Below the pieces are notes generated by a model that saw only the letters and a list, made by a program, of their open reading frames with translations, made no database searches and was not told where the DNA came from. Below, piece by piece: positions 3,714 through 40,405 of a stretch of DNA of 41,168 nt (position 1 is the first letter of the stretch; each line of letters starts with the position of its first letter). Made by a program: the position numbers and the translations under genes. The stretch is from a phage. The DNA lies in NCBI GenBank assembly GCA_013027745.1, contig GCA_013027745.1_4329.1, one strand, 5' to 3'.

Positions 3714-5984
3714 TTAATACCCCGGCTGGTTTCGTGTAGCACGGCGTGACTTAGAGATTGCGCTGTTGCTGTCTTGTAACGCCGCCGATACTGTTTCGCT
3801 GATGATAACACGTAACCGTCCTTCGTCGTCACGCTCAGTAACGGCAGAATCAACTCGCCCGGTGGTGTTGTTGACTATTGTCACGCTGTCACCTCCGGAG
3901 TTTCCGCCGTTTTGCCCCATAATCTCTTTCATCTGCTGCGCAGTGCGCACACGCGATGCCCCTGCGGGCATGATAACCTCTGGTTTACCGCGTTCGGCTA
4001 TGGTGGAAGCCTGCCCCGCAGATAACTGGCCGCCCTGCTCACGTGCAGAACGAATCTTGCCGATGTTCGCCAGACCTGCGGCGACGGCGGCGGCGGCGGC
4101 TACAGGCCCAAGCACCCAGCCAACAATAGGGATAGCCGATGCAGATTTATACGCCTCGATGGCAGAGGTGTATGTGGCTATTGTAGCCTGCGCAATGGCA
4201 AACGCTTTGTATGCAGCGGACGCCTCCCCTAGTGAGGCCTTCATGTTATCCGCCATCATGCCGAATGCGTTACCAGTAGCGTTGGCACGTTTCAAAGCAT
4301 ACTGGTCGTTTATGGCATTAACCGCGGCCTGGTACTGCTCCTCGTTAATAAGATTCTGTTCGCGATACCGGTCCGCAACGTCCAGTTTTTGTTGCTCCTG
4401 AATTTCCAGAAGCTCAAGCTCAGAGGCGTTCTGCCCCATAATCTGAGCCATGAAGTCTTCACCTTTCTGGTTCTTTTCCTGCCGTTCTTTCTCTCGCTTA
4501 TCCAGCTCTTCTTGCCGGGCTTGTCCGGCTTCGAGGACGATAGCCGTTTTTGCTTGCTCGTATTCTTTCAGAGCCAACGCGCCCTGGTTGTAGAACTCTT
4601 TTGCCTTGGCCAGTTTCTGCTGTTCCTGTGCGTCAATAGCCTTTAATTCGTCGTTGTTCTGACGGGCCAAAGTGTCGAGGTAATCCTGGGCCTGTTTACG
4701 CAATTGCTCCGCTTTCTTAGCGGCGGCTTTCGCGTCTTTGTCGTTGGTATTTCCGGTTCCACTAGTTCCACCCTTCCTGTTAACAAGGCTGGCTAAGTCA
4801 ATTTCTTGCTGCTTGCGCTCATTATACTGCTTGCGCTGTTCCTCAATTTCTTTCTTACGCTGCTTAGACCTGTTGGTAATGGCCTGCGACTCCGCTTCGG
4901 CGCGTTTTATGCTGGCGGCGTATGCGGCGTCGGCTTCTGCGGTCAGGTTTTTAAATGTGAGCGCCGCCGTTTTGCTCGGGTCAAACACGTCGGCAAGGGT
5001 CTGGCCAAGCGCTACGGCGTAATCGTCAATGCGCTGGAACCACGCAATAACCTCGTGGAATGTCTGCTGGATGTCAGGCAACCACTCACGAATAGCGTCC
5101 GGGATAGTCCCCAGCGAGTCGGACATATCCACGGATTTGTCCTCGGTATCGTATGCCAGGTCGTTTAAGGCATCAGAAATAAACTTGAACGACTCATTGA
5201 ACAGCGTCACCCAATCCTGGAGCGTGGCTGCTATCTCATTAGACGCTATGGCGTCGGTGAGTGCTGTAATAGCATCTTCCGCTGTTGCCGCTTGTTCGCC
5301 TACCGCGTCGCCGAAACCTGATTGCGCCACCGCAAGTACAAGACCGTCGAAGGAGTCCGCGAGGCTAGATAACTGCCCGTCAAGGGTTTTCGAACGCGTT
5401 TCCATCGCTCCGGCGAAATCAGTGTTACCAATATTCAGGAGGTATTTCTGAATCTCTTCGGAGTTCTTTTTAACAGTGGTCGTTACACCACGGAACGTGA
5501 ACGAAACTGTATCTGCCTGTTGCGACGACTTGATGCCGAACTCTTTTAAACGCTCAAACTCGAAGGTACTGGCGTCCGCCACGGCCTCAATCATCTGATT
5601 AAGGTCTTTACCCATAGCCGCCGCGGTGTTGCCGTAGGATATCAGCGCCTCTTTGCTTGGGTTCAGACCGAGGGCTACAAGTTTAGTGAAGCCCTCAACA
5701 GCCTGGTTAAGTCCGTATGGGGTTTCTTTTGCAAACTGTTGCAGGACGCTGAAAGCCTTAGCAGCGTTCTCAGCGCTCCCGGTCATCGTGATGAGGCCGG
5801 AGTTCAGCTTATCGAAGTTGCGCTGGGAGTCCACCAGCGCACTGAACACCTGTTTAGCGGTTTCCAGACTGACAACGGCGGCGGCGGCGGCCCCCGCCGC
5901 CTTAGTAAGCCCGTTCAGTTGTGATGTGGTTTTATCGACGCCGGTCGATGATACTCGTACTATCAAGCTAGCGGTATCAGCCAT
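3714..5984 (-). CDS. tail tape measure protein
   Basis: Largest structural ORF, Ala/Gln-rich and coiled-coil-like with a long helical central region, located after the chaperone pair. Likely start ATG at 5984 (MADTASL); track start 5999 is TTG. Confidence 0.8.
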   Translation of the reverse strand: MADTASLIVRVSSTGVDKTTSQLNGLTKAAGAAAAAVVSLETAKQVFSALVDSQRNFDKLNSGLITMTGSAENAAKAFSVLQQFAKETPYGLNQAVEGFTKLVALGLNPSKEALISYGNTAAAMGKDLNQMIEAVADASTFEFERLKEFGIKSSQQADTVSFTFRGVTTTVKKNSEEIQKYLLNIGNTDFAGAMETRSKTLDGQLSSLADSFDGLVLAVAQSGFGDAVGEQAATAEDAITALTDAIASNEIAATLQDWVTLFNESFKFISDALNDLAYDTEDKSVDMSDSLGTIPDAIREWLPDIQQTFHEVIAWFQRIDDYAVALGQTLADVFDPSKTAALTFKNLTAEADAAYAASIKRAEAESQAITNRSKQRKKEIEEQRKQYNERKQQEIDLASLVNRKGGTSGTGNTNDKDAKAAAKKAEQLRKQAQDYLDTLARQNNDELKAIDAQEQQKLAKAKEFYNQGALALKEYEQAKTAIVLEAGQARQEELDKREKERQEKNQKGEDFMAQIMGQNASELELLEIQEQQKLDVADRYREQNLINEEQYQAAVNAINDQYALKRANATGNAFGMMADNMKASLGEASAAYKAFAIAQATIATYTSAIEAYKSASAIPIVGWVLGPVAAAAAVAAGLANIGKIRSAREQGGQLSAGQASTIAERGKPEVIMPAGASRVRTAQQMKEIMGQNGGNSGGDSVTIVNNTTGRVDSAVTERDDEGRLRVIISETVSAALQDSNSAISKSRRATRNQPGY

Positions 5985-6865: not shown

Positions 6866-6894
6866 TTGCACACCCCAACATAATAGGATACTAT
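6866..6894 (+). promoter_or_regulatory. sigma70-like promoter, class I (TTGCAC-N17-TACTAT) with AATAG-N4-CTATT palindrome
   Basis: -35 TTGCAC 6866-6871, -10 TACTAT 6889-6894; extended identity ccccaacataataggatactattca shared with three other promoters. Confidence 0.6.
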
Positions 6895-7165: not shown

Positions 7166-8296
7166 ATGGCCCGGAAGAAAATAACCGACGAACAATTACA
7201 GGAAGAATTGAACGCCGGGATGAAGAATATAGATATAGCCCGTAAATACGGCATCTCAGACCGCGTAATTCGTATACGTAAAGCGAAACTGGCTAAGAAA
7301 GGCGTAGGTCACGGGCGTGACGTTAGCCACCTTGTACCAGACGGATACAAGATTAAAGGCACATCGTCGCTGGTGGACGAGTTCGGCAACACTAAGTTGC
7401 AATGGGTTAAGACTGATACCGATGCCGAACGTCAGGTCGAGTTGATGAAAGCCGTAATCGAAGGCATGAAGTCAGAGATTACCCCGGTTGCACCTGTTAA
7501 AGCCGTTCGCACCAAACGAGACGACAAGCTACTTAATCTTTACACTGTGTCTGATTTCCATCTCGGTATGCTGGCTTGGGCCGACGAGAGCGGCGACGAC
7601 TGGGACATGAAGATTGCAGAAGACCTGTTCTCCCGATGGTTCGATGCAGCATTTCAGAAAGCACCAGATGCCGGAACAGGAGTTATTAACCTGCTTGGGG
7701 ACTTCGCACACTTCGATAGTCTTGATGCCGTCACCCCTGAGTCGCGCAATGTATTAGACGCTGATACTCGCTATCAGAAACTGGTCCGCTACATGATTCG
7801 TATGGTCCGACGTGTTGTTGATATGGCGCTGGTTAAACACAGGACTGTGAAACTTCTTGTCGTACAGGGGAATCATGACCCTGTAGGCTCTGTGTGGCTG
7901 GCTGAGATGTTCAGTACGCTGTACGACAATGATCCTCGTGTGCTCGTCGATACGTCGCCGGATGTTTACAAGATGGTCCAACACGGCAAAACTACGCTGT
8001 TCTTTCACCACGGGCATAAAGCCCGATTCGACGCTATTGAACCGGTTATGATTGCCAAGTTCCGTAAAGCATTCGGAGAGAGCGTTTACAGCTACGCCCA
8101 CGTAGGCCACCTGCACCACCAGAAGATTGTAGAAAGCCGTAACATGGTTGTTGAGCAGCACCGCACCCTAGCGGCTAAAGATGCCTACGCCTCCCGCGGC
8201 GGATGGATGTCAGGCCGTAGTGCAAATGTAATTACTTATAGCGCCGAATATGGTGAGGTCGCACGTTTAACTATTTCACCGGAGATGCTGGGATGA
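7166..8296 (+). CDS. HTH-fused calcineurin-like metallophosphoesterase
   Basis: N-terminal HTH (IDIARKYGISDRVIRIR), then phosphoesterase motifs DFHLG, GDFAHFD, GNHD, FFHHGH, GHLHH. Confidence 0.75.
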   Translation: MARKKITDEQLQEELNAGMKNIDIARKYGISDRVIRIRKAKLAKKGVGHGRDVSHLVPDGYKIKGTSSLVDEFGNTKLQWVKTDTDAERQVELMKAVIEGMKSEITPVAPVKAVRTKRDDKLLNLYTVSDFHLGMLAWADESGDDWDMKIAEDLFSRWFDAAFQKAPDAGTGVINLLGDFAHFDSLDAVTPESRNVLDADTRYQKLVRYMIRMVRRVVDMALVKHRTVKLLVVQGNHDPVGSVWLAEMFSTLYDNDPRVLVDTSPDVYKMVQHGKTTLFFHHGHKARFDAIEPVMIAKFRKAFGESVYSYAHVGHLHHQKIVESRNMVVEQHRTLAAKDAYASRGGWMSGRSANVITYSAEYGEVARLTISPEMLG

Positions 8297-8695: not shown

Positions 8696-8715
8696 AAGGC
8701 CCCTTTCGGGGCCTT
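8696..8715. terminator. bidirectional rho-independent terminator (conserved cassette copy 1)
   Basis: aaggcccc-tttc-ggggcctt hairpin flanked by A-run and T-run; between convergent genes. Confidence 0.7.
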
Positions 8716-8719
8716 AGTT

Positions 8720-9892
8720 TTATGCGTAGGTGATACGCTGGATAACAATAGACGACTGGTATTGGTTGCCGGTAGCCTGGCCTTCAATGGACTGAGTGAT
8801 TGACTCAGGTCCGCCAATCTCAGGCGTAACCGCCGTAAGTTCCGCACGTTTCAAACTGAAAGACATAGCACCATTTACCCCTGCCAGAATAGAGTTAATC
8901 TCTACCTGCTGTTCATTGATAAACTTCTGAATCATCGCCATGTCGTACAGCTTGCCGGAGATGGAGAAGGTGTTAGCCGCGCGACCTCGTTCCACGAACG
9001 CAACGCTGCTGTTGCCGAGTTCGAACTGAGCAGATGCGCCGTTGTCGTTGGTGATGGTCAGAGTATCGCAACGCAACGGCGTAGAACCGTCGAACACAGA
9101 CACATCTACAGAGGAGAACGGCTCATCAGTAAACGTCACCTGAGAGAAATCAGAACCTGCTGGCGGTGTGGAAAGAATTTCCTGACTCAGACCGATGAAC
9201 GGGAAGCTGCCTGTCACCATCGCGTTTACGGCCTGTTCAATGGTGAAACCGGAGATTTCCACGCCTTTGGTCAACATGTACGCGTCAGGGTTCCCGCACT
9301 GTCCTTTGAACCATGTCAGGATGGAGAACGTCTTACATGCGTTACCGGTTTCCAGTTTGTCGCCGGTTTTAGCGTCGGTGGTTACAGTCTCTGCTGTCAG
9401 CGTGTGCTGAATGCCCGCGCCCGTAACTACAAGAGCAGAAACCGCGGTCACGATAAACGGTTTTGCGTTGTCGCCGGTTAAGTCGGTGAACGCAATCAGG
9501 TCGCCAACTTCTACACCGTCGGTAATGAAGCTACCAGCGGCGCGGGTGAATGTTTTACCTGCGGGGGCGACCGTAATTTCTGCACCCGTAATCTCTACCC
9601 CATCCTGCCACGTAGATGTCATCGCACCAGCGAGGAAATCATCCTGACTACGGGAGCTAAGCTCAATGGCATACTCTCCGCTGACCTGCTTGTTACCAGT
9701 GCGGATGGACGTAGTTTCACGGCTGCCGTCCAGTTCGTTGGAGGTCAGCGCATCGCGGGTTACCGCAGGAACGCCGCCAGTGTTGCGCAACGGCGACCAT
9801 ACCGGGTTACTTGGTGTTACGCCCGGGGTCACTTCCGCCACATAGAATTGCGCGGTATTCGCGCCCTTAAAAGGAGTTGTAGCCATATTCAC
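8720..9892 (-). CDS. major tail protein
   Basis: 390 aa Thr/Gly/Ser-rich ORF upstream of the chaperone and tape-measure block; followed by a terminator. Confidence 0.6.
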   Translation of the reverse strand: MNMATTPFKGANTAQFYVAEVTPGVTPSNPVWSPLRNTGGVPAVTRDALTSNELDGSRETTSIRTGNKQVSGEYAIELSSRSQDDFLAGAMTSTWQDGVEITGAEITVAPAGKTFTRAAGSFITDGVEVGDLIAFTDLTGDNAKPFIVTAVSALVVTGAGIQHTLTAETVTTDAKTGDKLETGNACKTFSILTWFKGQCGNPDAYMLTKGVEISGFTIEQAVNAMVTGSFPFIGLSQEILSTPPAGSDFSQVTFTDEPFSSVDVSVFDGSTPLRCDTLTITNDNGASAQFELGNSSVAFVERGRAANTFSISGKLYDMAMIQKFINEQQVEINSILAGVNGAMSFSLKRAELTAVTPEIGGPESITQSIEGQATGNQYQSSIVIQRITYA

Positions 9893-15223: not shown

Positions 15224-15455
15224 GGGTAATTACCTCTGATTTCGTCTTGCCTTCGTTGTCAGCGGCTGCGGCCTTTGATTCGTCCTGCTGCTGCCGTTGT
15301 GTTTTCTTCGCTAACTCAGCCTGTGCTTTCTGCTGTTGCTGCGAAACGAGATTCGCCCGGCCTTCGTTCCAGCCGCTGCGGTACTGATAGATGCCGTGTG
15401 CGTAAGCCAGGATGATGAAACATGCTCCCGCTACGACAGTTGCTTTAAGATTCAT
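15069..15455 (-). CDS. i-spanin (Rz-like)
   Basis: N-terminal TM helix then charged coiled-coil region; overlapping partner lipoprotein ORF. Confidence 0.6.
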   Translation of the reverse strand: MNLKATVVAGACFIILAYAHGIYQYRSGWNEGRANLVSQQQQKAQAELAKKTQRQQQDESKAAAADNEGKTKSEVITREVVKYIKTPGRSVCTFDDARVLLKSRAVTNANSIPGYDNDAAAVQAGTAK

Positions 15456-15565
15456 GTTTCTCCTTTCTCGATAAGTAAAGCCCCGCCATAAAGCGGGGCG
15501 CTAGTCCTTATCATTTAAACATAGAAACGGCGTAATCTCAGTAAACCAGTTACTTTTTACACAAG

Positions 15566-15712
15566 CAATAGAGTATGGCCCTTCCGAACGCGTCAGCGTA
15601 ACTACACTCAGGACTTACGTCCCGCTCCGTTACCTGCCCGCGCCGCGGTCGCTTGTTCATACTTCACAAGCTCAGGTGGAGCTTAGCACATTTTTAGTGA
15701 AAAGTCAACTAT
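15566..15712. repeat. ~147 bp intergenic repeat, copy A (copy B at 28382-28529)
   Basis: Conserved 5' block (caatagaNtatggcccttccgaa) and 3' block; 34 nt identical core ccgcggtcgcttgttcatacttcacaagctcagg at 15643-15676. Confidence 0.7.
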
Positions 15713-15774
15713 TCGAATAGTTTATTCCAACATTTACAATTCGGTGGAATAACTGGAATGGGTAAATAAATAGT

Positions 15775-15803
15775 TTGCGTACCCCAACATAATAGGGTAC
15801 TAT
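15775..15803 (+). promoter_or_regulatory. sigma70-like promoter, class I, with operator palindrome
   Basis: TTGCGT-N17-TACTAT; accccaacataatagggtactattca; drives the 15831 moron. Confidence 0.55.
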
Positions 15804-23966: not shown

Positions 23967-24040
23967 AAAACTGGAGAGCAGAGGGATGGAACAGGAGGTG
24001 ATTTAAGTATCGTCGGATTAGTCTTAGGTGTCAATTGGTA

Positions 24041-28165: not shown

Positions 28166-28199
28166 AACCCTCACTCCTCTGTCTCGTTTCGATAAGTGA

Positions 28200-28228
28200 A
28201 TAGTATCCTATTATGTTGGGGCGTGCAA
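28200..28228 (-). promoter_or_regulatory. sigma70-like promoter, class I, minus strand
   Basis: Reverse complement reads TTGCAC-N17-TACTATTCACTTATCGAAACGAGA; palindrome aatagtatcctatt at 28199-28212. Confidence 0.6.
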
Positions 28229-28381
28229 GAGAATAGTTACGTTGCCGTTGTGATTCTTCAGGTTTAATAGGATAGCGAGCGAAACGAAACGAACGGGGTG
28301 CCGAAGGCACCAAGAGTGAGTGAGTGAGCTTGCGGTTCTAACCTACGGCAAATCAGTAACTTAGATACTTAGGCGGGAATT

Positions 28382-28529
28382 ACAATAGACTATGGCCCTT
28401 CCGAATGCGCCAGCGAGGCTCACTCCACACGTCGAGACGTGCTCGTTTCGCCTGCCGCGCACCGCGGTCGCTTGTTCATACTTCACAAGCTCAGGACGAG
28501 CTTACCATATTTCTTAGTAAAAGTCAATA
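28382..28529. repeat. ~147 bp intergenic repeat, copy B
   Basis: Matches copy A at 15566-15712; identical 34 nt core at 28461-28494; variable middle. Confidence 0.7.
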
Positions 28530-28574: not shown

Positions 28575-28603
28575 TTGCTTTTACATTCCCGCTATCCTAT
28601 ACT
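28575..28603 (+). promoter_or_regulatory. sigma70-like promoter (TTGCTT-N17-TATACT) for the AlpA-like gene
   Basis: -35 at 28575-28580, -10 at 28598-28603, then SD aggag and ATG 28635. Confidence 0.5.
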
Positions 28604-28634: not shown

Positions 28635-28817
28635 ATGCAGCATTACATGACACAGAATGAGGTAGCCGAACGTATCGGGGTGACACGCCAGACAATTAAC
28701 AACTGGTTGCGCAGTGGTAAATTCCCGGATTGTTGTATTAAAGTTATGGGCCGCCGTTTGCCTGGTACATTTGACCGTAATAAAGTTGAAGCGTGGATTA
28801 AGGAGAACGTGGAATGA
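28635..28817 (+). CDS. AlpA/excisionase-like HTH DNA-binding protein
   Basis: MTQNEVAERIGVTRQTINNWLRSGKFP...VEAWIKE resembles AlpA-family winged HTH regulators. Confidence 0.65.
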   Translation: MQHYMTQNEVAERIGVTRQTINNWLRSGKFPDCCIKVMGRRLPGTFDRNKVEAWIKENVE

Positions 28818-35357: not shown

Positions 35358-37631
35358 ATGAGTTACCTGTTCTTAGACTTTGAAACATTCTCCGAAGCCG
35401 ATTTAAAGAAAGTCGGTTCCTACGCTTACGCCGAACACCCAACTACCGAAGTACTTATCTGTACATACGCTTTTGACGACGAGCCTGTGCGGGTATGGGA
35501 TTGCACCGACGGCAGCGACATGCCGGGGGATTTGCATCGCGCGTTACGCCGTCTGGTTAAGCCGAACAGCCGTATTAAGATGGTATGGCACAACGGCTCA
35601 ATGTTCGACAGGCTCATCATGAAACACTGCTGGGGCTTTGACATTCCTGTAAGCAACACCATTGATACGATGATTTGGGCGTTTCGACACGCGCTTCCGG
35701 GTTCGCTCGAAGCATTGTGTGAAGTGCTGAGCGTATCCGCGGACAACGCGAAAGATAAACGCGGTAAGGCGCTGATTAAGCGTTTCTCTAAACCGACGCC
35801 GAAGAACTACAAAATCCGCCGCTACACCGCCGAAACACACCCGGACGAGTGGGCGCTGTTCATCAAGTACGCCGTGAGCGACATCACTGCGATGCGTGAA
35901 GTCTTCCATAAGCTGCCGCGGTGGGGTAACTCTGAGTTTGAGGACCGTGTACTGGAGCTGGACCAGTTAATCAATGACCGAGGCTTCTTTGTTGATACGG
36001 CTCTTGCCGAGGCAGCGGTAGCGGCAGTTGAACGCCACAAGCAAGAGCTGAAAAACGAGGCCCGCGCGAAATTCGGGGGGAAACTAACGGGCAAAGACTT
36101 CCTGCCAATCCTTCGGGAACTGGCACCGGCTTACAATATCTATAATGCGCAAAAAGCAACGCTCGAAGGTTTGCTAGAGGACGACGACTTACCTGATGAT
36201 GCGCGCACAATCATTGAGATGCGCCTCGGCGCAGCCTCCACGGCGTCGACAAAATACAAACCGCTCCTGCTAGGACGGTCCAAAGATGGACGCCGCCGCG
36301 GTTGCATCCAGTACGGGGGGGCAAAGCGCACTTTACGATTTGCGGGTAAAGGGTTCCAACCGCAGAACCTGTCGCGCGGGTACTATCATGACGACCCAAC
36401 TAACGAGGAAAAGAAACTTGTACGCCAGCCGTGGGAGTCTGATGAAGACTGGAACCGCAGGCTTAACCCGCTATCATTTGGCATCAATTTGCTTTTAAAG
36501 GGCCGGGCGCATCGCCGTTTCGATGTGTCTAAACTGACGGCCTCAACTGTCCGCAGTTGCATCATCCCGGAAAAAGGTAATAAGTTGCTCGTTGCCGACT
36601 ACTCAAACGTGGAAGGGCGTGGGTTAGCCTGGGCGGCGGGGGAGACGTCCGCCCTTGAGACGTTCCGTGCGGGGATTGATATTTATTGCGCCACTGCGGG
36701 CAAGATGTTTGGTATGGACCCCGTAGAACTGAAAGCCACCCGTAAAGACCTGCGACAGGTCGGGAAATGTTGCGAGCTAGGCCTCGGCTACGAGGGGGGC
36801 GTAGGGGCCTTCATGACTATGGCTAAAACTTACGGGCTGGACCTCTTTAAAATGACGGAGACAATGCGGGGAACATTCCCTGACCATATATGGGCCGCCA
36901 CTGCCCGAGGCTATGAATGGGCACGGATTCAGGAGGCTAAGCGGCCCCCAAAACCCGGTAAAAAGGATGAACGGGCCTCTTATGTGTTGCCTAAGGAAGT
37001 GTGGCGCACCTGCGATGCTATCAAGCGCATGTGGCGGGAAGCCCATCCGGAAACAGTGAAATTCTGGAACGACCTTAAGGATTCGGTAATTGCCGCAATC
37101 AGAAATCCGGGACGAGAGTTTTGGGCGGGGGCCAGAGTCCGCCTTAACGGCGACAGAGCTATTCGCATCTGGCGTACTAAAGAGAAAGATAGTCAGGGTA
37201 GATTTGTGCCGGGTTGGTGGTTGTGTGTAGAACTGCCGTCAGGGCGCGTCATGTCGTACCCCGGCATAGGTCTGAGCGTTACTAAAGAAACTGACGAGGA
37301 TGGGCGCGTAACAACTAACGTTCGCATTAAGTACCAGGGCGAAAACCAGACCACCCGCCAGTGGACAACTTTGTACACACACGGCGGAAAATTGTGTGAA
37401 AACATCATCCAGGCGTTGTGCCGTGATTTACTGGTTAACGGACTCCTGACGGTCGAGACGGCGGGCTACCCAATTGTACTCCACGTACATGACGAATGTG
37501 TTGCCGAAACGCCAGACACGCCAGAGTACACGGTTAAAGAGATGGGTGACCTGCTATGCTCATTACCCGAATGGGCCGAAGGGTTCCCGTTAACATGGGC
37601 TGGGGAAGAGGTGTACCGTTATGCTAAGTAA
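35358..37631 (+). CDS. DNA polymerase I (family A) with 3'-5' exonuclease domain
   Basis: Exo motif LFLDFETFS near the N-terminus; polymerase motif A DYSNVEGRGLAW and motif C LHVHDECV. Confidence 0.9.
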   Translation: MSYLFLDFETFSEADLKKVGSYAYAEHPTTEVLICTYAFDDEPVRVWDCTDGSDMPGDLHRALRRLVKPNSRIKMVWHNGSMFDRLIMKHCWGFDIPVSNTIDTMIWAFRHALPGSLEALCEVLSVSADNAKDKRGKALIKRFSKPTPKNYKIRRYTAETHPDEWALFIKYAVSDITAMREVFHKLPRWGNSEFEDRVLELDQLINDRGFFVDTALAEAAVAAVERHKQELKNEARAKFGGKLTGKDFLPILRELAPAYNIYNAQKATLEGLLEDDDLPDDARTIIEMRLGAASTASTKYKPLLLGRSKDGRRRGCIQYGGAKRTLRFAGKGFQPQNLSRGYYHDDPTNEEKKLVRQPWESDEDWNRRLNPLSFGINLLLKGRAHRRFDVSKLTASTVRSCIIPEKGNKLLVADYSNVEGRGLAWAAGETSALETFRAGIDIYCATAGKMFGMDPVELKATRKDLRQVGKCCELGLGYEGGVGAFMTMAKTYGLDLFKMTETMRGTFPDHIWAATARGYEWARIQEAKRPPKPGKKDERASYVLPKEVWRTCDAIKRMWREAHPETVKFWNDLKDSVIAAIRNPGREFWAGARVRLNGDRAIRIWRTKEKDSQGRFVPGWWLCVELPSGRVMSYPGIGLSVTKETDEDGRVTTNVRIKYQGENQTTRQWTTLYTHGGKLCENIIQALCRDLLVNGLLTVETAGYPIVLHVHDECVAETPDTPEYTVKEMGDLLCSLPEWAEGFPLTWAGEEVYRYAK

Positions 37632-38490: not shown

Positions 38491-38984
38491 GTAAATTCAG
38501 TAGAAGACCCGATATTGAAGAGGCGAAACGTCTTCTTAACTATGACCCCGAAACAGGTATATTTACACGAAAAGTAAGCATAAAAGGTAGAAATGCGGGG
38601 GAGGTAGCCGGGGGGCCAAACGACAAAGGATACATAGTTATCACAGTATCTGGTGTAAGAATAAAAGCCCACCATCTGGCATGGGCTTTCGTCTACGGAG
38701 AATACCATAATGGTGAGCTTGGCCATAAAGACCGTAACAGGGCCAATAACGCCATAAATAATATAAGGCCTGCAACCAGGAGCCAGCAGATTCAGAACCG
38801 CGAATGCTCATCGTATAACACTAGCGGCGCGATAGGGGTTTACCAAATACCATCGGGCCGGTGGCGCGCCAGAATAGGCGTCAATAACAAATACATCCAC
38901 CTTGGCTATTTTGACACTATAGAAGAAGCGTCGCGCGCATACCAAAGAGCCGCGGAAATATACTTCGGGGAGTTCAAGCCATGA
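38487..38984 (+). CDS. HNH homing endonuclease with AP2 DNA-binding domain
   Basis: HNH region HHLAWAFVYGEYHNGELGHKDRNRANNAINNIR; AP2 region GVYQIPSGRWRARIGVNNKYIHLGYFDTIEEASRAYQRAA. Confidence 0.8.
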   Translation: MSKFSRRPDIEEAKRLLNYDPETGIFTRKVSIKGRNAGEVAGGPNDKGYIVITVSGVRIKAHHLAWAFVYGEYHNGELGHKDRNRANNAINNIRPATRSQQIQNRECSSYNTSGAIGVYQIPSGRWRARIGVNNKYIHLGYFDTIEEASRAYQRAAEIYFGEFKP

Positions 38985-40405
38985 GTAAGTTTAGGCGCAG
39001 GGAATACCAGAAAATAATGACGTCGTTTATGTTACAGCATCCGCGCTGCAATATCTGGTGTGGTATGGGTGGCGGTAAGACCTCATCAACGATGTGGGTG
39101 CTTAACCGCCTGTTCCGCAACGGACAACTTAATGACGACGACCGAGTGTTAATCCTCGCCCCGCTGCGCGTTGCATCCGGCACATGGCCCGCAGAACAAG
39201 AGAAATGGCGATTCCCGTGCCTGCGTGTCGTAGATGCGACAGGTTCAGAGAAACGCCGCATCGCGGCGCTGGAGTCAGATGCTAACGTGGTGTGTACCAA
39301 CTACGAAGTTATCGAGTGGCTGATTGACTACTACGGCAAAGACGACTGGCCTTTTACGGTTATCGTTGCCGATGAAAGCACGAAACTTAAATCTTTCCGT
39401 AGCCGTTCTGGTGGCAGCAAGCGCGCGAAGGCACTCAGCAAAGTGGCGTTCGGCAAGGTTAAGCGGTTCATTAACCTGACAGGTACGCCGTCGCCAAACG
39501 GCCTCAAAGACCTGTGGGGTCAGAACTGGTTTATCGACGCTGGTGAGCGCCTCGGTTCTTCCTACACAGCATTCACCGACCGCTGGTTTAACTCGGTACA
39601 GAAAGGTAAGTCGGCGATGGCGCGGGAGTACCACGCACGCCCGGGCGCGGATAATGAAATTCACCAGAAGATGAAAGACATAAGCCTCACGATTGACGCC
39701 GCTGAGTGGTTCGGGTGTGAAGCGCCGATTATTGTTCCGGTTGAAATCGACCTGCCGAAGAAGGCGCGTCAGGCGTACATCGATATGGAGGAGAAGTTAT
39801 TCGCGGAACTGGAGAGCGGAGAAGTTGAAGCGGCTAACGCGGCGGCGAAGACGTCAAAGTGTTTGCAGATTGCCTCCGGTGCCGTATATGTGTCGGGGCC
39901 AGACGGTGAGGCAACCAAAGACTGGGAGAAAGTGCACGACACGAAACTGGATGCGCTGGAGTCTATCGTTGAGGAGTTACAGGGCGCACCGTTGCTTGTG
40001 GCTTATCAGTTTAAGCATGAACTGGAGCGCATCCTTAAGCGATTCCCGCAGGCGCAGGCGTTTGCAAAAGGCGCCAAGGGTAATAAGCAGATGGAAGCGT
40101 GGAACCGCGGCGAAATCGAAATCTTATGCGTGCATCCTGCGTCGGCCGGGCATGGTTTGAATTTACAGGACGGCGGACATCATCTGGCATTCATCTCGCA
40201 AGGCTGGAACCTTGAGCACTATTTGCAGGTTGTCGAGCGTATAGGCCCGGTCCGCCAGAAACAGGCAGGCCACGAGCGCCCAGTGTTCCTCTATCATATC
40301 GTTGCCAAAGACACGCTGGATGAGGTTGTTGCCGCGCGTACGGACGAGAAGAAATCTGTACAGGAAGAGTTGCTTAATTACATGAAGAGACGAGGTAAGA
40401 AATGA
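38981..40405 (+). CDS. SNF2/DEAD-like helicase
   Basis: Walker A GMGGGKTS, DExx box VIVADESTKLK, LTGTPSPNGL motif, C-terminal helicase domain. Confidence 0.8.
   Translation: MSKFRRREYQKIMTSFMLQHPRCNIWCGMGGGKTSSTMWVLNRLFRNGQLNDDDRVLILAPLRVASGTWPAEQEKWRFPCLRVVDATGSEKRRIAALESDANVVCTNYEVIEWLIDYYGKDDWPFTVIVADESTKLKSFRSRSGGSKRAKALSKVAFGKVKRFINLTGTPSPNGLKDLWGQNWFIDAGERLGSSYTAFTDRWFNSVQKGKSAMAREYHARPGADNEIHQKMKDISLTIDAAEWFGCEAPIIVPVEIDLPKKARQAYIDMEEKLFAELESGEVEAANAAAKTSKCLQIASGAVYVSGPDGEATKDWEKVHDTKLDALESIVEELQGAPLLVAYQFKHELERILKRFPQAQAFAKGAKGNKQMEAWNRGEIEILCVHPASAGHGLNLQDGGHHLAFISQGWNLEHYLQVVERIGPVRQKQAGHERPVFLYHIVAKDTLDEVVAARTDEKKSVQEELLNYMKRRGKK

Follow-up and report, generated by a model that had tools for sequence, protein, structure and literature searches.

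The put sites of phage HK022, putL and putR, are two promoter-proximal copies, one per operon, each with two stem-loops (PMC9378689). Both Q of λ and AlpA of Pseudomonas depend on three features, namely a −10-like element placed at about −1 to +5, a binding element, and a terminator further downstream (PMC9371919). In λ, nutL and nutR are also two promoter-proximal RNA sites, one per operon, each with a hairpin. Paralogous small RNAs with conserved ends and a variable middle, such as OmrA and OmrB, are common.

We analysed an intergenic element that is present in two copies, A and B, in a 41,168-nt stretch of phage DNA, referred to below, at its full length, as the window. BLAST of both copies against phage records placed the window in Kagunavirus (Guernseyvirinae), and its nearest contig was IMGVR_UViG_3300045988_017057. 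Kagunaviruses are virulent siphophages of E. coli and are kin of the Salmonella Jersey-like phages. The 34-mer CCGCGGTCGCTTGTTCATACTTCACAAGCTCAGG occurs exactly twice when both strands of the window are searched, at 15643–15676 and 28462–28495, against 0 expected, and the two copies reported in a first-pass annotation are therefore real and beyond chance. The annotation had placed the 34-mer correctly in copy A and one base too low in copy B (28461–28494). A repeat search aligned the copies in a 70-nt block with 86% identity (15639–15708 and 28458–28527) and a 33-nt block with 91% identity (15566–15598 and 28383–28415), separated by a dissimilar stretch of about 40–45 nt, in agreement with the conserved flanks and variable middle that had been described. 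As read from sequence, each copy is one minus-strand unit made up of a σ70 promoter, a P1 hairpin, a P2 hairpin and a conserved tail, and the element is a previously undescribed, conserved promoter-plus-leader RNA module. It is very probably transcribed, as a structured leader RNA linked to its promoter. Literature searches on Kagunavirus, Jerseyvirus and Guernseyvirinae, covering both the element and antitermination, returned nothing relevant, and a published Kagunavirus RNA-seq paper gives gene-level timing only. The features of the two copies and of the sequence upstream of them are as follows.

15680–15708, minus strand: promoter of copy A (P_A), with −35 TTGACT (15708–15703), a 17-nt spacer ending in TGc (extended −10) and −10 TAAGCT (15685–15680); from a pattern search and 35 promoter versions.
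15566–15673, minus strand: leader RNA A, 108 nt, with P1 at 15671–15651, a GA linker, P2 at 15648–15584 and the tail AAGGGCCAUACUCUAUUG at 15583–15566; from a covariance model and folding.
15709–15759, minus strand: repeat block upstream of P_A, not found at copy B; from sequence reading and relatives.
15775–15803, plus strand: promoter near copy A, TTGCGT-N17-TACTAT; from sequence reading.
28499–28527, minus strand: promoter of copy B (P_B), with −35 TTGACT (28527–28522), a 17-nt spacer ending in TGg and −10 TAAGCT (28504–28499); from a pattern search and 35 promoter versions.
28383–28492, minus strand: leader RNA B, 110 nt, with P1 at 28490–28470, P2 at 28467–28401 and the tail extending to 28383; from a covariance model and folding.
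28575–28603, plus strand: promoter near copy B, TTGCTT-N17-TATACT; from sequence reading.

The two plus-strand promoters, which had been noted from the start, can be read from the sequence 46–75 bp beyond each copy.

The element resembles the HK022 put sites in having two copies per genome at operon heads, near promoters and with terminators downstream, in an RNA 5′ end that lies within the first of two adjacent stem-loops, and in paralogues that share their flanks and differ in their stems. It differs in length (108–110 nt, against about 70 nt for put), in being carried by a virulent Guernseyvirinae phage rather than a lambdoid one, in that its promoter is part of the conserved unit, and in that copy A serves late rather than early genes. 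Put itself antiterminates without a protein factor, through the β′ zinc-binding domain, and rpoC mutations in that domain block it. HK022 contained no match with E ≤ 1 to R1, a covariance model of the element built from 14 sequences with the structure set by hand, and the putL and putR sequences showed no likeness to the element. Membership of the put family was rejected on grounds of no homology, a different size and a different type of phage.

With the λ PR′–6S–tR′ region and Q, and with Pseudomonas AlpA, the element shares a strong σ70 promoter with a TTGACT −35, a leader of about 175–190 nt ending in a hairpin, lysis and morphogenesis genes next in line, and a −10-like hexamer at the putative transcript start; its covarying RNA fold, however, is without counterpart in the Q systems. 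The layout of nutL and nutR is also shared, but the tip loop of P2 is not conserved, so that there is no boxB-like recognition loop. No boxA (YGCUCUUWA, at most one mismatch) was found in 15470–15673 or 28285–28492, the window total being no higher than chance, and to our knowledge these phages have no N-like gene. The ops element GGCGGTAGnnTG, allowing up to two mismatches, was absent from the RNA-sense strand of either leader, with a window total equal to chance; the opposite strand carries two matches, each with two mismatches, at 15644 and 28463. Identity with a nut site or with an RfaH/ops site was rejected, there being no boxA, no conserved loop and no ops. OmrA and OmrB are similar in their two copies, their conserved 5′ and 3′ parts and variable centre, and, with respect to locus B, their own promoter and end hairpin. 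In the element, by contrast, the variable centre is a compensated helix tip and is not single-stranded, copy A is fused to an operon, and no target was found within the phage.

Promoters and distribution of the element

Related loci were gathered by exact-word, pattern and protein-anchored scans, yielding 35 distinct promoter versions. TTGACT-N17-TAAGCT has two exact matches in the window, both at the copies, with 0 expected. Base counts in the 35 versions were T35, T27/A7/C1, G35, A35, C33/T2, T35 for the −35 hexamer and T35, A35, A27/C8, G35, C35, T35 for the −10 hexamer. TG was present at −15/−14 in all 35, with any base at −13, and nine spacer positions were variable. Hexamers conserved around a drifting spacer have the look of a working σ70 promoter with an extended −10, and we infer that transcription starts at the G at 15673 in copy A and at 28492 in copy B.

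The first transcribed bases either repeat the −10 hexamer or are complementary to it (15680–15667 and 28504–28486; 7299–7325 in Jersey, L136). The sequence around the putative start forms a palindrome, AAGCTC-N5-GAGCTT, in Kagunavirus, and reads TACGCT-N3-TACGCT..AGCGTA in Jerseyvirus; the hexamer and the first transcribed bases change together between the two genera. This relationship could mark a pause element or an operator, or could provide an alternative pairing in transcripts that read through.

The block upstream of P_A contains a palindrome, CTATTCGAATAG (15709–15720), which abuts the −35 and is centred near −42, and an inverted repeat, TTATTCC (15722–15728)/GGAATAA (15746–15752). Every Kagunavirus A locus has this block, Jerseyvirus and Cornellvirus have part of it, and it is probably a regulator binding site. 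A regulator landing pad had been offered as a role for the element, and does not fit the shared block: regulator-like repeats occur only upstream of copy A, outside the shared part.

A second repeat, AATAG-N4-CTATT, was found as seven exact 14-mers, at 6882, 15791, 26804, 28199, 31790, 34599 and 38247; with one-mismatch matches there are 10 in the window, against 0.95 expected. The exact copies at 6882, 15791, 28199, 31790, 34599 and 38247 sit in the spacer and −10 region of σ70-like promoters, which have two layouts, TTGACA-N17-TATAGT and TTGCAC-N17-TACTAT. This repeat resembles an operator to which a phage regulator would bind. Inverted, its half-site (CTATTC followed directly by GAATAG) abuts the −35 of promoter A, and one protein might repress the early promoters and activate the late one.

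The first-pass annotation had proposed a search of related phages, and had stated that a lack of conservation, of a transcript and of protein binding would point to a recent neutral duplication. The element was found in about 180 phage records from two or three genera, which rules out such a duplication. All 181 matching records carried at least one copy, at 224 places in total, so that about 43 records have two; among IMG/VR contigs two copies were present in 11 of 34. By these counts copy A is the universal copy; copy B is present in about a quarter to a third of genomes. In both Kagunavirus and Jerseyvirus, copy A stands before the spanin-head-tail operon. Bas70 (L135) and Jersey have copy A only, and their B loci keep a promoter, a non-coding RNA, a hairpin and an operon promoter, with unrelated 5′ modules. 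The non-coding RNAs at these B loci, at 36280–36530 in Bas70 and 38860–39160 in Jersey, have strong hairpins. The promoter motif of the Bas70 B locus, TTGACACnTnTTTGTATAATG, recurs before the spanin leader in three distant relatives (L102, L096 and L094); duplication of this alternative module within a genome was rejected, as it is found once per contig.

In Cornellvirus SP-031 the upstream repeats are retained, together with the promoter layout (TGGATT-N17 with TGa-TAACCT), a small hairpin at the 5′ end and GACCGCG–CGGAAGGGUC in one uninterrupted stretch; its R1 score is not significant. More distant relatives have another long spanin leader, and share only the tail (..AUAGUCUAUUC) and the last hairpin. 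One phage sequence (L009) has a core of the B-locus type within A-locus flanks. The suggestion that the element is a recombination hotspot holds to the extent that hairpin cores have been exchanged between the two loci and between phages; there was no sign of shuffling of the 12.8-kb segment between the copies, which holds essential packaging genes.

A pattern scan of 185,579 bacterial species genomes gave 10 matches, 8 of which did not match R1. The remaining two were phage fragments, one in JAEWLW010000073.1 (L142, a 'Bacillota' MAG) and one in Taishania pollutisoli scaffold48 (L145, 738 bp), with element scores of 71.8 and 35.3 bits respectively. They are probably phage contamination or mis-binning.

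RNA fold and covariation

In both copies P1 consists of GCUUGU, a 9-nt loop and ACAAGC, beginning at nucleotide 3 and followed by two unpaired bases (GA); P1 of copy B is identical to that of copy A. P2, of about 65 nt, has CCG/CGG at its foot; above this come a bulged C and GGYGCG/CGCRUU, then a middle helix interrupted by a one-base bulge, an asymmetric internal loop that is conserved (ACGGAGC/UGAGUGUAG), and finally the apical helix. The base of P2 is common to A and B (in B, CCG, c and GGUGCG...CGCAUU, then CGG) and the upper part differs, being GGGAC/GUCCU in A and CACGU/ACGUG in B, paired in both. The tail after P2, AAGGGCCAUAnUCUAUUG, is conserved, with the pattern UUCGGAAGGGCC...CUAUUG, and is single-stranded in the fold. 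What had been described as a variable core is the apical part of this hairpin, in which pairing is kept by compensatory changes. Relatives have P2e as CGGAC/GUCCG, GGUGC/GCACU, GGGGC/GCCCU, GUGCC/GGCAC or GGGCG/CGCCC, P2d as GUAAC/GUUAC, GGAAC/GUUCC or GAAAC/GUUUC, P2b as GGCGCG/CGCGUU, GGUGCG/CGCAUU or GGAGCG/CGCUUU, and P1 as GCUUGUG/CGCAAGC or ACGC/GCGU. The apical loop of P2 is also variable (GUAA, GUUA, GUCA, AUUA, CUCG, UCACAA).

R1 gave 129.4 bits for copy A (E about 6e-29) and 75.1 bits for copy B (E about 5e-16), and 35–38 bits (E about 1e-5) for the Jerseyvirus versions, which lie at the same genomic position. A third, degenerate copy was not found when the whole window was searched with filters off, including the region before the tail operon and the gap at 23.7–24.2 kb; the next R1 match scored 10 bits. 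In an alignment of 37 distinct sequences that was fitted to R1, and in which counts are for this reason somewhat inflated, standard pairs occupied 95.7% of 1025 pair cells, against 32–38% when partners were slid by one to three columns, and both-sided changes were seen in 18 of 29 pairs (123 cells). None of 500 shuffles reached the observed pairing values, and an unfitted MAFFT alignment gave the same picture on a smaller scale. G-U cells numbered 103 and A-C cells 11, and pairing was 95.7% in the minus sense against 86.7% in the plus sense. The G-U and A-C counts indicate that the fold belongs to the minus-strand transcript, and the compensatory changes together with the G-U excess on one strand point to selection on the RNA fold. 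Single-sequence folding z-scores were modest (−2.1, −1.3 and −2.75).

Folding with covariation analysis, another check that had been suggested, thus found a compensated fold on the minus strand. Of the three roles first offered for the element, a structured small RNA is the one supported, in that there is a covarying fold; that proposal is amended in that the RNA is on the minus strand and has its own promoter inside the shared sequence.

Several alternatives to the fold were rejected. A plus-strand RNA folds less well, and its 103 G-U pairs would become A-C mismatches; a plus-strand promoter-like site in copy B (28482–28511) is at chance level and is absent from copy A. A pseudoknot between the P1 loop (AGUAUG) and the tail (CAUACU) was discarded, since the tail varies without compensation while the loop stays fixed. 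Rfam gave no match at gathering thresholds in the whole window and, around copy A at E ≤ 10, only chance-level matches, none of them on the element.

A small protein was likewise rejected. The 36-codon ORF Bas70_0007 starts in the P1 loop, and in copy B its reading frame is closed after 19 codons; an AUG is lacking in the E, F and Jersey variants, indels in P2 shift the frame, and the ORF does not correspond to the annotated Jersey ORF gp08. Public records call short 'hypothetical protein' genes over the leader at 5282–5392 in Bas70 (Bas70_0007), at 7265–7456 in Jersey (N271_gp08) and in several other phages. These short ORFs annotated across the leader RNA are probably false gene calls.

Gene context and downstream signals

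Gene context was taken from the annotation of Bas70, Jersey and SP-031 together with PHROGs and Pfam. Both copies lie upstream of minus-strand genes, as the first-pass annotation had stated, A before the spanin-head-tail operon and B before a leftward early operon. Copy A heads a run of genes for spanin, scaffold, major head protein, decoration protein, connector and minor tail proteins (15455→8720), which ends with a strong terminator at 8715→8696. By position it is the leader of a late operon comprising spanin, scaffold, head, connector and tail genes, and copy B, its duplicate, stands ahead of the leftward early operon. Copy B lies in a divergent early region. To its right are genes for a 60-aa HTH_17 protein (28635–28817) and a helicase-primase, and to its left are small genes, lysis genes, a gap with its own promoters (23.7–24.2 kb) and terminase, followed leftward by genes for portal, head morphogenesis and a Hoc-like protein. 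Downstream of the major head gene is a strong terminator (13108→13087, minus strand), conserved in Jersey at 9859–9876; a strong intrinsic terminator follows the portal gene (18522→18507, minus strand). The relative amounts of structural proteins are probably fixed by such terminators lying within the late gene runs. The following features lie downstream of the two leaders.

15500–15565, minus strand: spacer of copy A, A+U-rich, holding the motif ACUGAGAUUACGCCGU; from alignments.
15470–15499, minus strand: terminator-like hairpin of copy A, GCCCCGC-UUUAUG-GCGGGGC, then UUUACUUAUC; from a terminator scan.
28312–28382, minus strand: spacer of copy B, of mixed composition, with an (ACUC)n microsatellite at 28314–28330; from sequence and alignments.
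28281–28311, minus strand: terminator-like hairpin of copy B, GGUGCC-UUC-GGCACC, then CCGUUCGUUUCGUUUCG, with a poor U tract; from a terminator scan.
28200–28228, minus strand: separate promoter of the leftward early genes, TTGCAC-N17-TACTAT, with the operator-like palindrome AATAG-N4-CTATT; from sequence reading and repeats.

The spacer between leader and hairpin is 66–71 nt at both copies. Its motif at A (ACUGA..AUU..GCCGU) is common in degenerate form to copy B and Jerseyvirus. The stem of the A hairpin is compensated in relatives (GCCCTGC/GCAGGGC, GCCCGGC/GCCGGGC, GCCCGAC/GTCGGGC). Directly 3′ of this hairpin are the RBS and start codon (ATG at 15455) of an Rz-like spanin gene; about 24 nt separate the hairpin from this first start codon, and about 14 nt separate it from the Shine-Dalgarno sequence. 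This leaves no room for another promoter, so that late mRNA must start at P_A or upstream and carry the leader. At copy B, the first leftward gene starts at 28174. Copy A's hairpin has a moderate U tract (UUUACUU) after it; those at B and in Jerseyvirus are poor. By inspection, alternative pairing between leader and terminator, of the riboswitch or attenuator kind, was limited to short G+C-rich complementarities that are not the same at different loci.

The GC hairpin at 28297–28311, the GAAAC repeats at 28281–28294 and the (GAGT)n run at 28314–28328 that had been listed beside copy B are all present. The number of (ACUC)n units varies among phages, with extra units in one phage (L006), and pairing is possible between this microsatellite, (ACTC)n/(GAGT)n in the DNA, and the GGAGUGAG strand of P2 in copy B.

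Possible functions and a further promoter–RNA unit

By analogy with put, the element may be a leader that acts in cis, causing the polymerase that transcribes it to read through stops further downstream, a reading to which we give a probability of about 35%. A host σ70 promoter with an extended −10 would drive a non-coding RNA starting at the foot of P1, and the nascent two-hairpin RNA would act in cis on its own polymerase, alone or with a phage or host factor. The modified complex would pass the GC hairpin 70–90 nt downstream, and would also pass the strong intrinsic terminators that follow the major head and portal genes within the operons. This explanation is favoured because the conserved unit is a promoter plus an RNA, because it lies at the heads of two long operons with strong internal terminators, because its most tightly constrained parts are not those needed for simple 5′ protection, and because two paralogous promoter-proximal two-hairpin RNAs are the put arrangement. 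Several observations count against it. The poor U tracts after the B and Jerseyvirus hairpins mean that these are possibly not terminators, the separate operon promoter after copy B is the layout of an independent small-RNA gene, and unrelated promoter-plus-RNA modules occupy the same two loci in related phages. The lack of an R1 match or of sequence likeness to HK022 put, and the modest folding z-scores, weigh in the same direction. In addition, the conserved strong terminator after the major head gene suggests that the polymerase is not fully terminator-resistant.

A more specific proposal, which we consider possible but with the odds against it, is that the element represents a new class of antiterminator RNA that modifies RNA polymerase, unrelated to put and found in virulent siphophages as a portable, promoter-linked 'operon-entry' module moved by recombination. 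The base of P2, the internal loop and the tail would then contact the polymerase or a factor, and the tip of P2 would be a free spacer.

The element might instead be a trans-acting small RNA of about 190–200 nt, ending or processed near the GC hairpin, and serving as a sponge, decoy or regulator of a host or phage protein or mRNA. Its two gene copies would raise the dose and allow early expression, and at A read-through would happen to supply late mRNA. The order of promoter, RNA, hairpin and separate operon promoter at locus B fits a small-RNA gene, a similar layout with other RNAs is seen at the Bas70 and Jersey B loci and at 24034→23934 in the window, and paralogous small RNAs of the conserved-end, variable-middle type are common. 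However, the universal copy is A, where the RNA is itself the late operon's leader, the hairpins are followed by weak U tracts, and a search of the phage sequence found only scattered complementarities of 10–12 nt elsewhere; we consider such an RNA possible, with the odds against it. It seems rather unlikely that the element is an mRNA leader concerned with stability, processing or translation, or that an RNA-binding protein uses it as an operator. P1 would guard the 5′ end, P2 with its internal loop would be an RNase III or protein site, and the hairpin before the RBS would protect processed late mRNA. P1 does start 2–3 nt from the putative 5′ end, P2 is a long imperfect duplex with an asymmetric internal loop, the second hairpin stands close before the Shine-Dalgarno sequence (about 14 nt) with a U tract that is poor in Jerseyvirus, and the spacer is A+U-rich. 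Yet a simple 5′ hairpin would suffice for protection. Such a role would leave unexplained why the base of P2, its bulged C and the tail are so strictly conserved, and why the element is linked to one promoter; the B operon, moreover, has its own promoter and 5′ UTR, so that a leader upstream of these would do little.

If the element acted instead through DNA as a loading site of the Q/AlpA type, with a −10-like pause element and an antiterminator binding site, the RNA fold would be secondary, and the covariation of P2 at 25–90 nt downstream would be left unexplained. The layout at A is like that of λ PR′–6S–tR′ (TTGACT −35, leader of about 175 nt, hairpin, spanins, structural genes), a −10-like GAGCTT falls at about +1 to +6 from the putative start in Kagunavirus, Jerseyvirus repeats its −10 hexamer TACGCT 3 nt later, and the gene for the early 60-aa HTH_17 protein adjoins copy B. 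Nevertheless, the −10-like hexamer is absent from the Cornellvirus version, the annotations of Bas70, Jersey and SP-031 list no homologue of Q or AlpA, and a scan of the proteins neighbouring the element found only HTH_17/HTH_3 or no family, and we judge a site of this type to be distinctly unlikely. An origin transcript, in which a structured G-rich RNA would form a persistent hybrid and prime DNA synthesis, with B as the main origin and A as a second, has precedents in the T4 or T7 origins and in ColE1 RNA II; origins in T4 and T7 are promoter-dependent and multiple. Copy B has the early regulator and helicase-primase genes on one side and the leftward genes on the other, the phage has T7-like replication genes (family A polymerase, gp2.5-like single-strand binding protein, helicase-primase), and an A+U-rich stretch follows the RNA. 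Set against this, the universal copy A is inside the late region, B is missing from most genomes, natural single-copy relatives suggest that replication proceeds normally when B is absent, and no iterons or DnaA boxes are common to both copies, which makes an origin very improbable. Least probable of all is a purely DNA-level feature, whether a protein landing pad, a recombination site or a neutral duplication: the exchange of hairpin cores between loci and phages and the palindrome AAGCTC-N5-GAGCTT around the putative start would suit it, but compensatory changes and the excess of G-U pairs on one strand speak for selection acting on an RNA fold, and the spread over about 180 records in two or three genera rules out neutral duplication.

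Guernseyvirinae phages are widely isolated for therapy against E. coli and Salmonella. The element sits where late transcription must start, and offers a handle on late transcription in Guernseyvirinae with host polymerase only. Should it modify polymerase, as in the read-through reading, it would be only the second protein-independent antiterminator RNA family from enterobacterial phages, and would supply a compact part for building synthetic operons. Should it not, it would still be a new structured RNA family with strong covariation support, which gene callers should stop translating.

Another promoter–RNA–terminator unit was seen in the window at 24034–23934 (minus strand). Its promoter is TTGACA-N17-GATACT, and the RNA, CU-rich and about 66 nt long, has its start near CACCUCCU, a sequence identical to the 3′ end of 16S rRNA. 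This 8-mer was absent from the corresponding place in Bas70, Jersey and SP-031. The RNA ends in a strong terminator, CCCGGC...GCCGGG followed by U9, after which there is a further promoter for the next genes.
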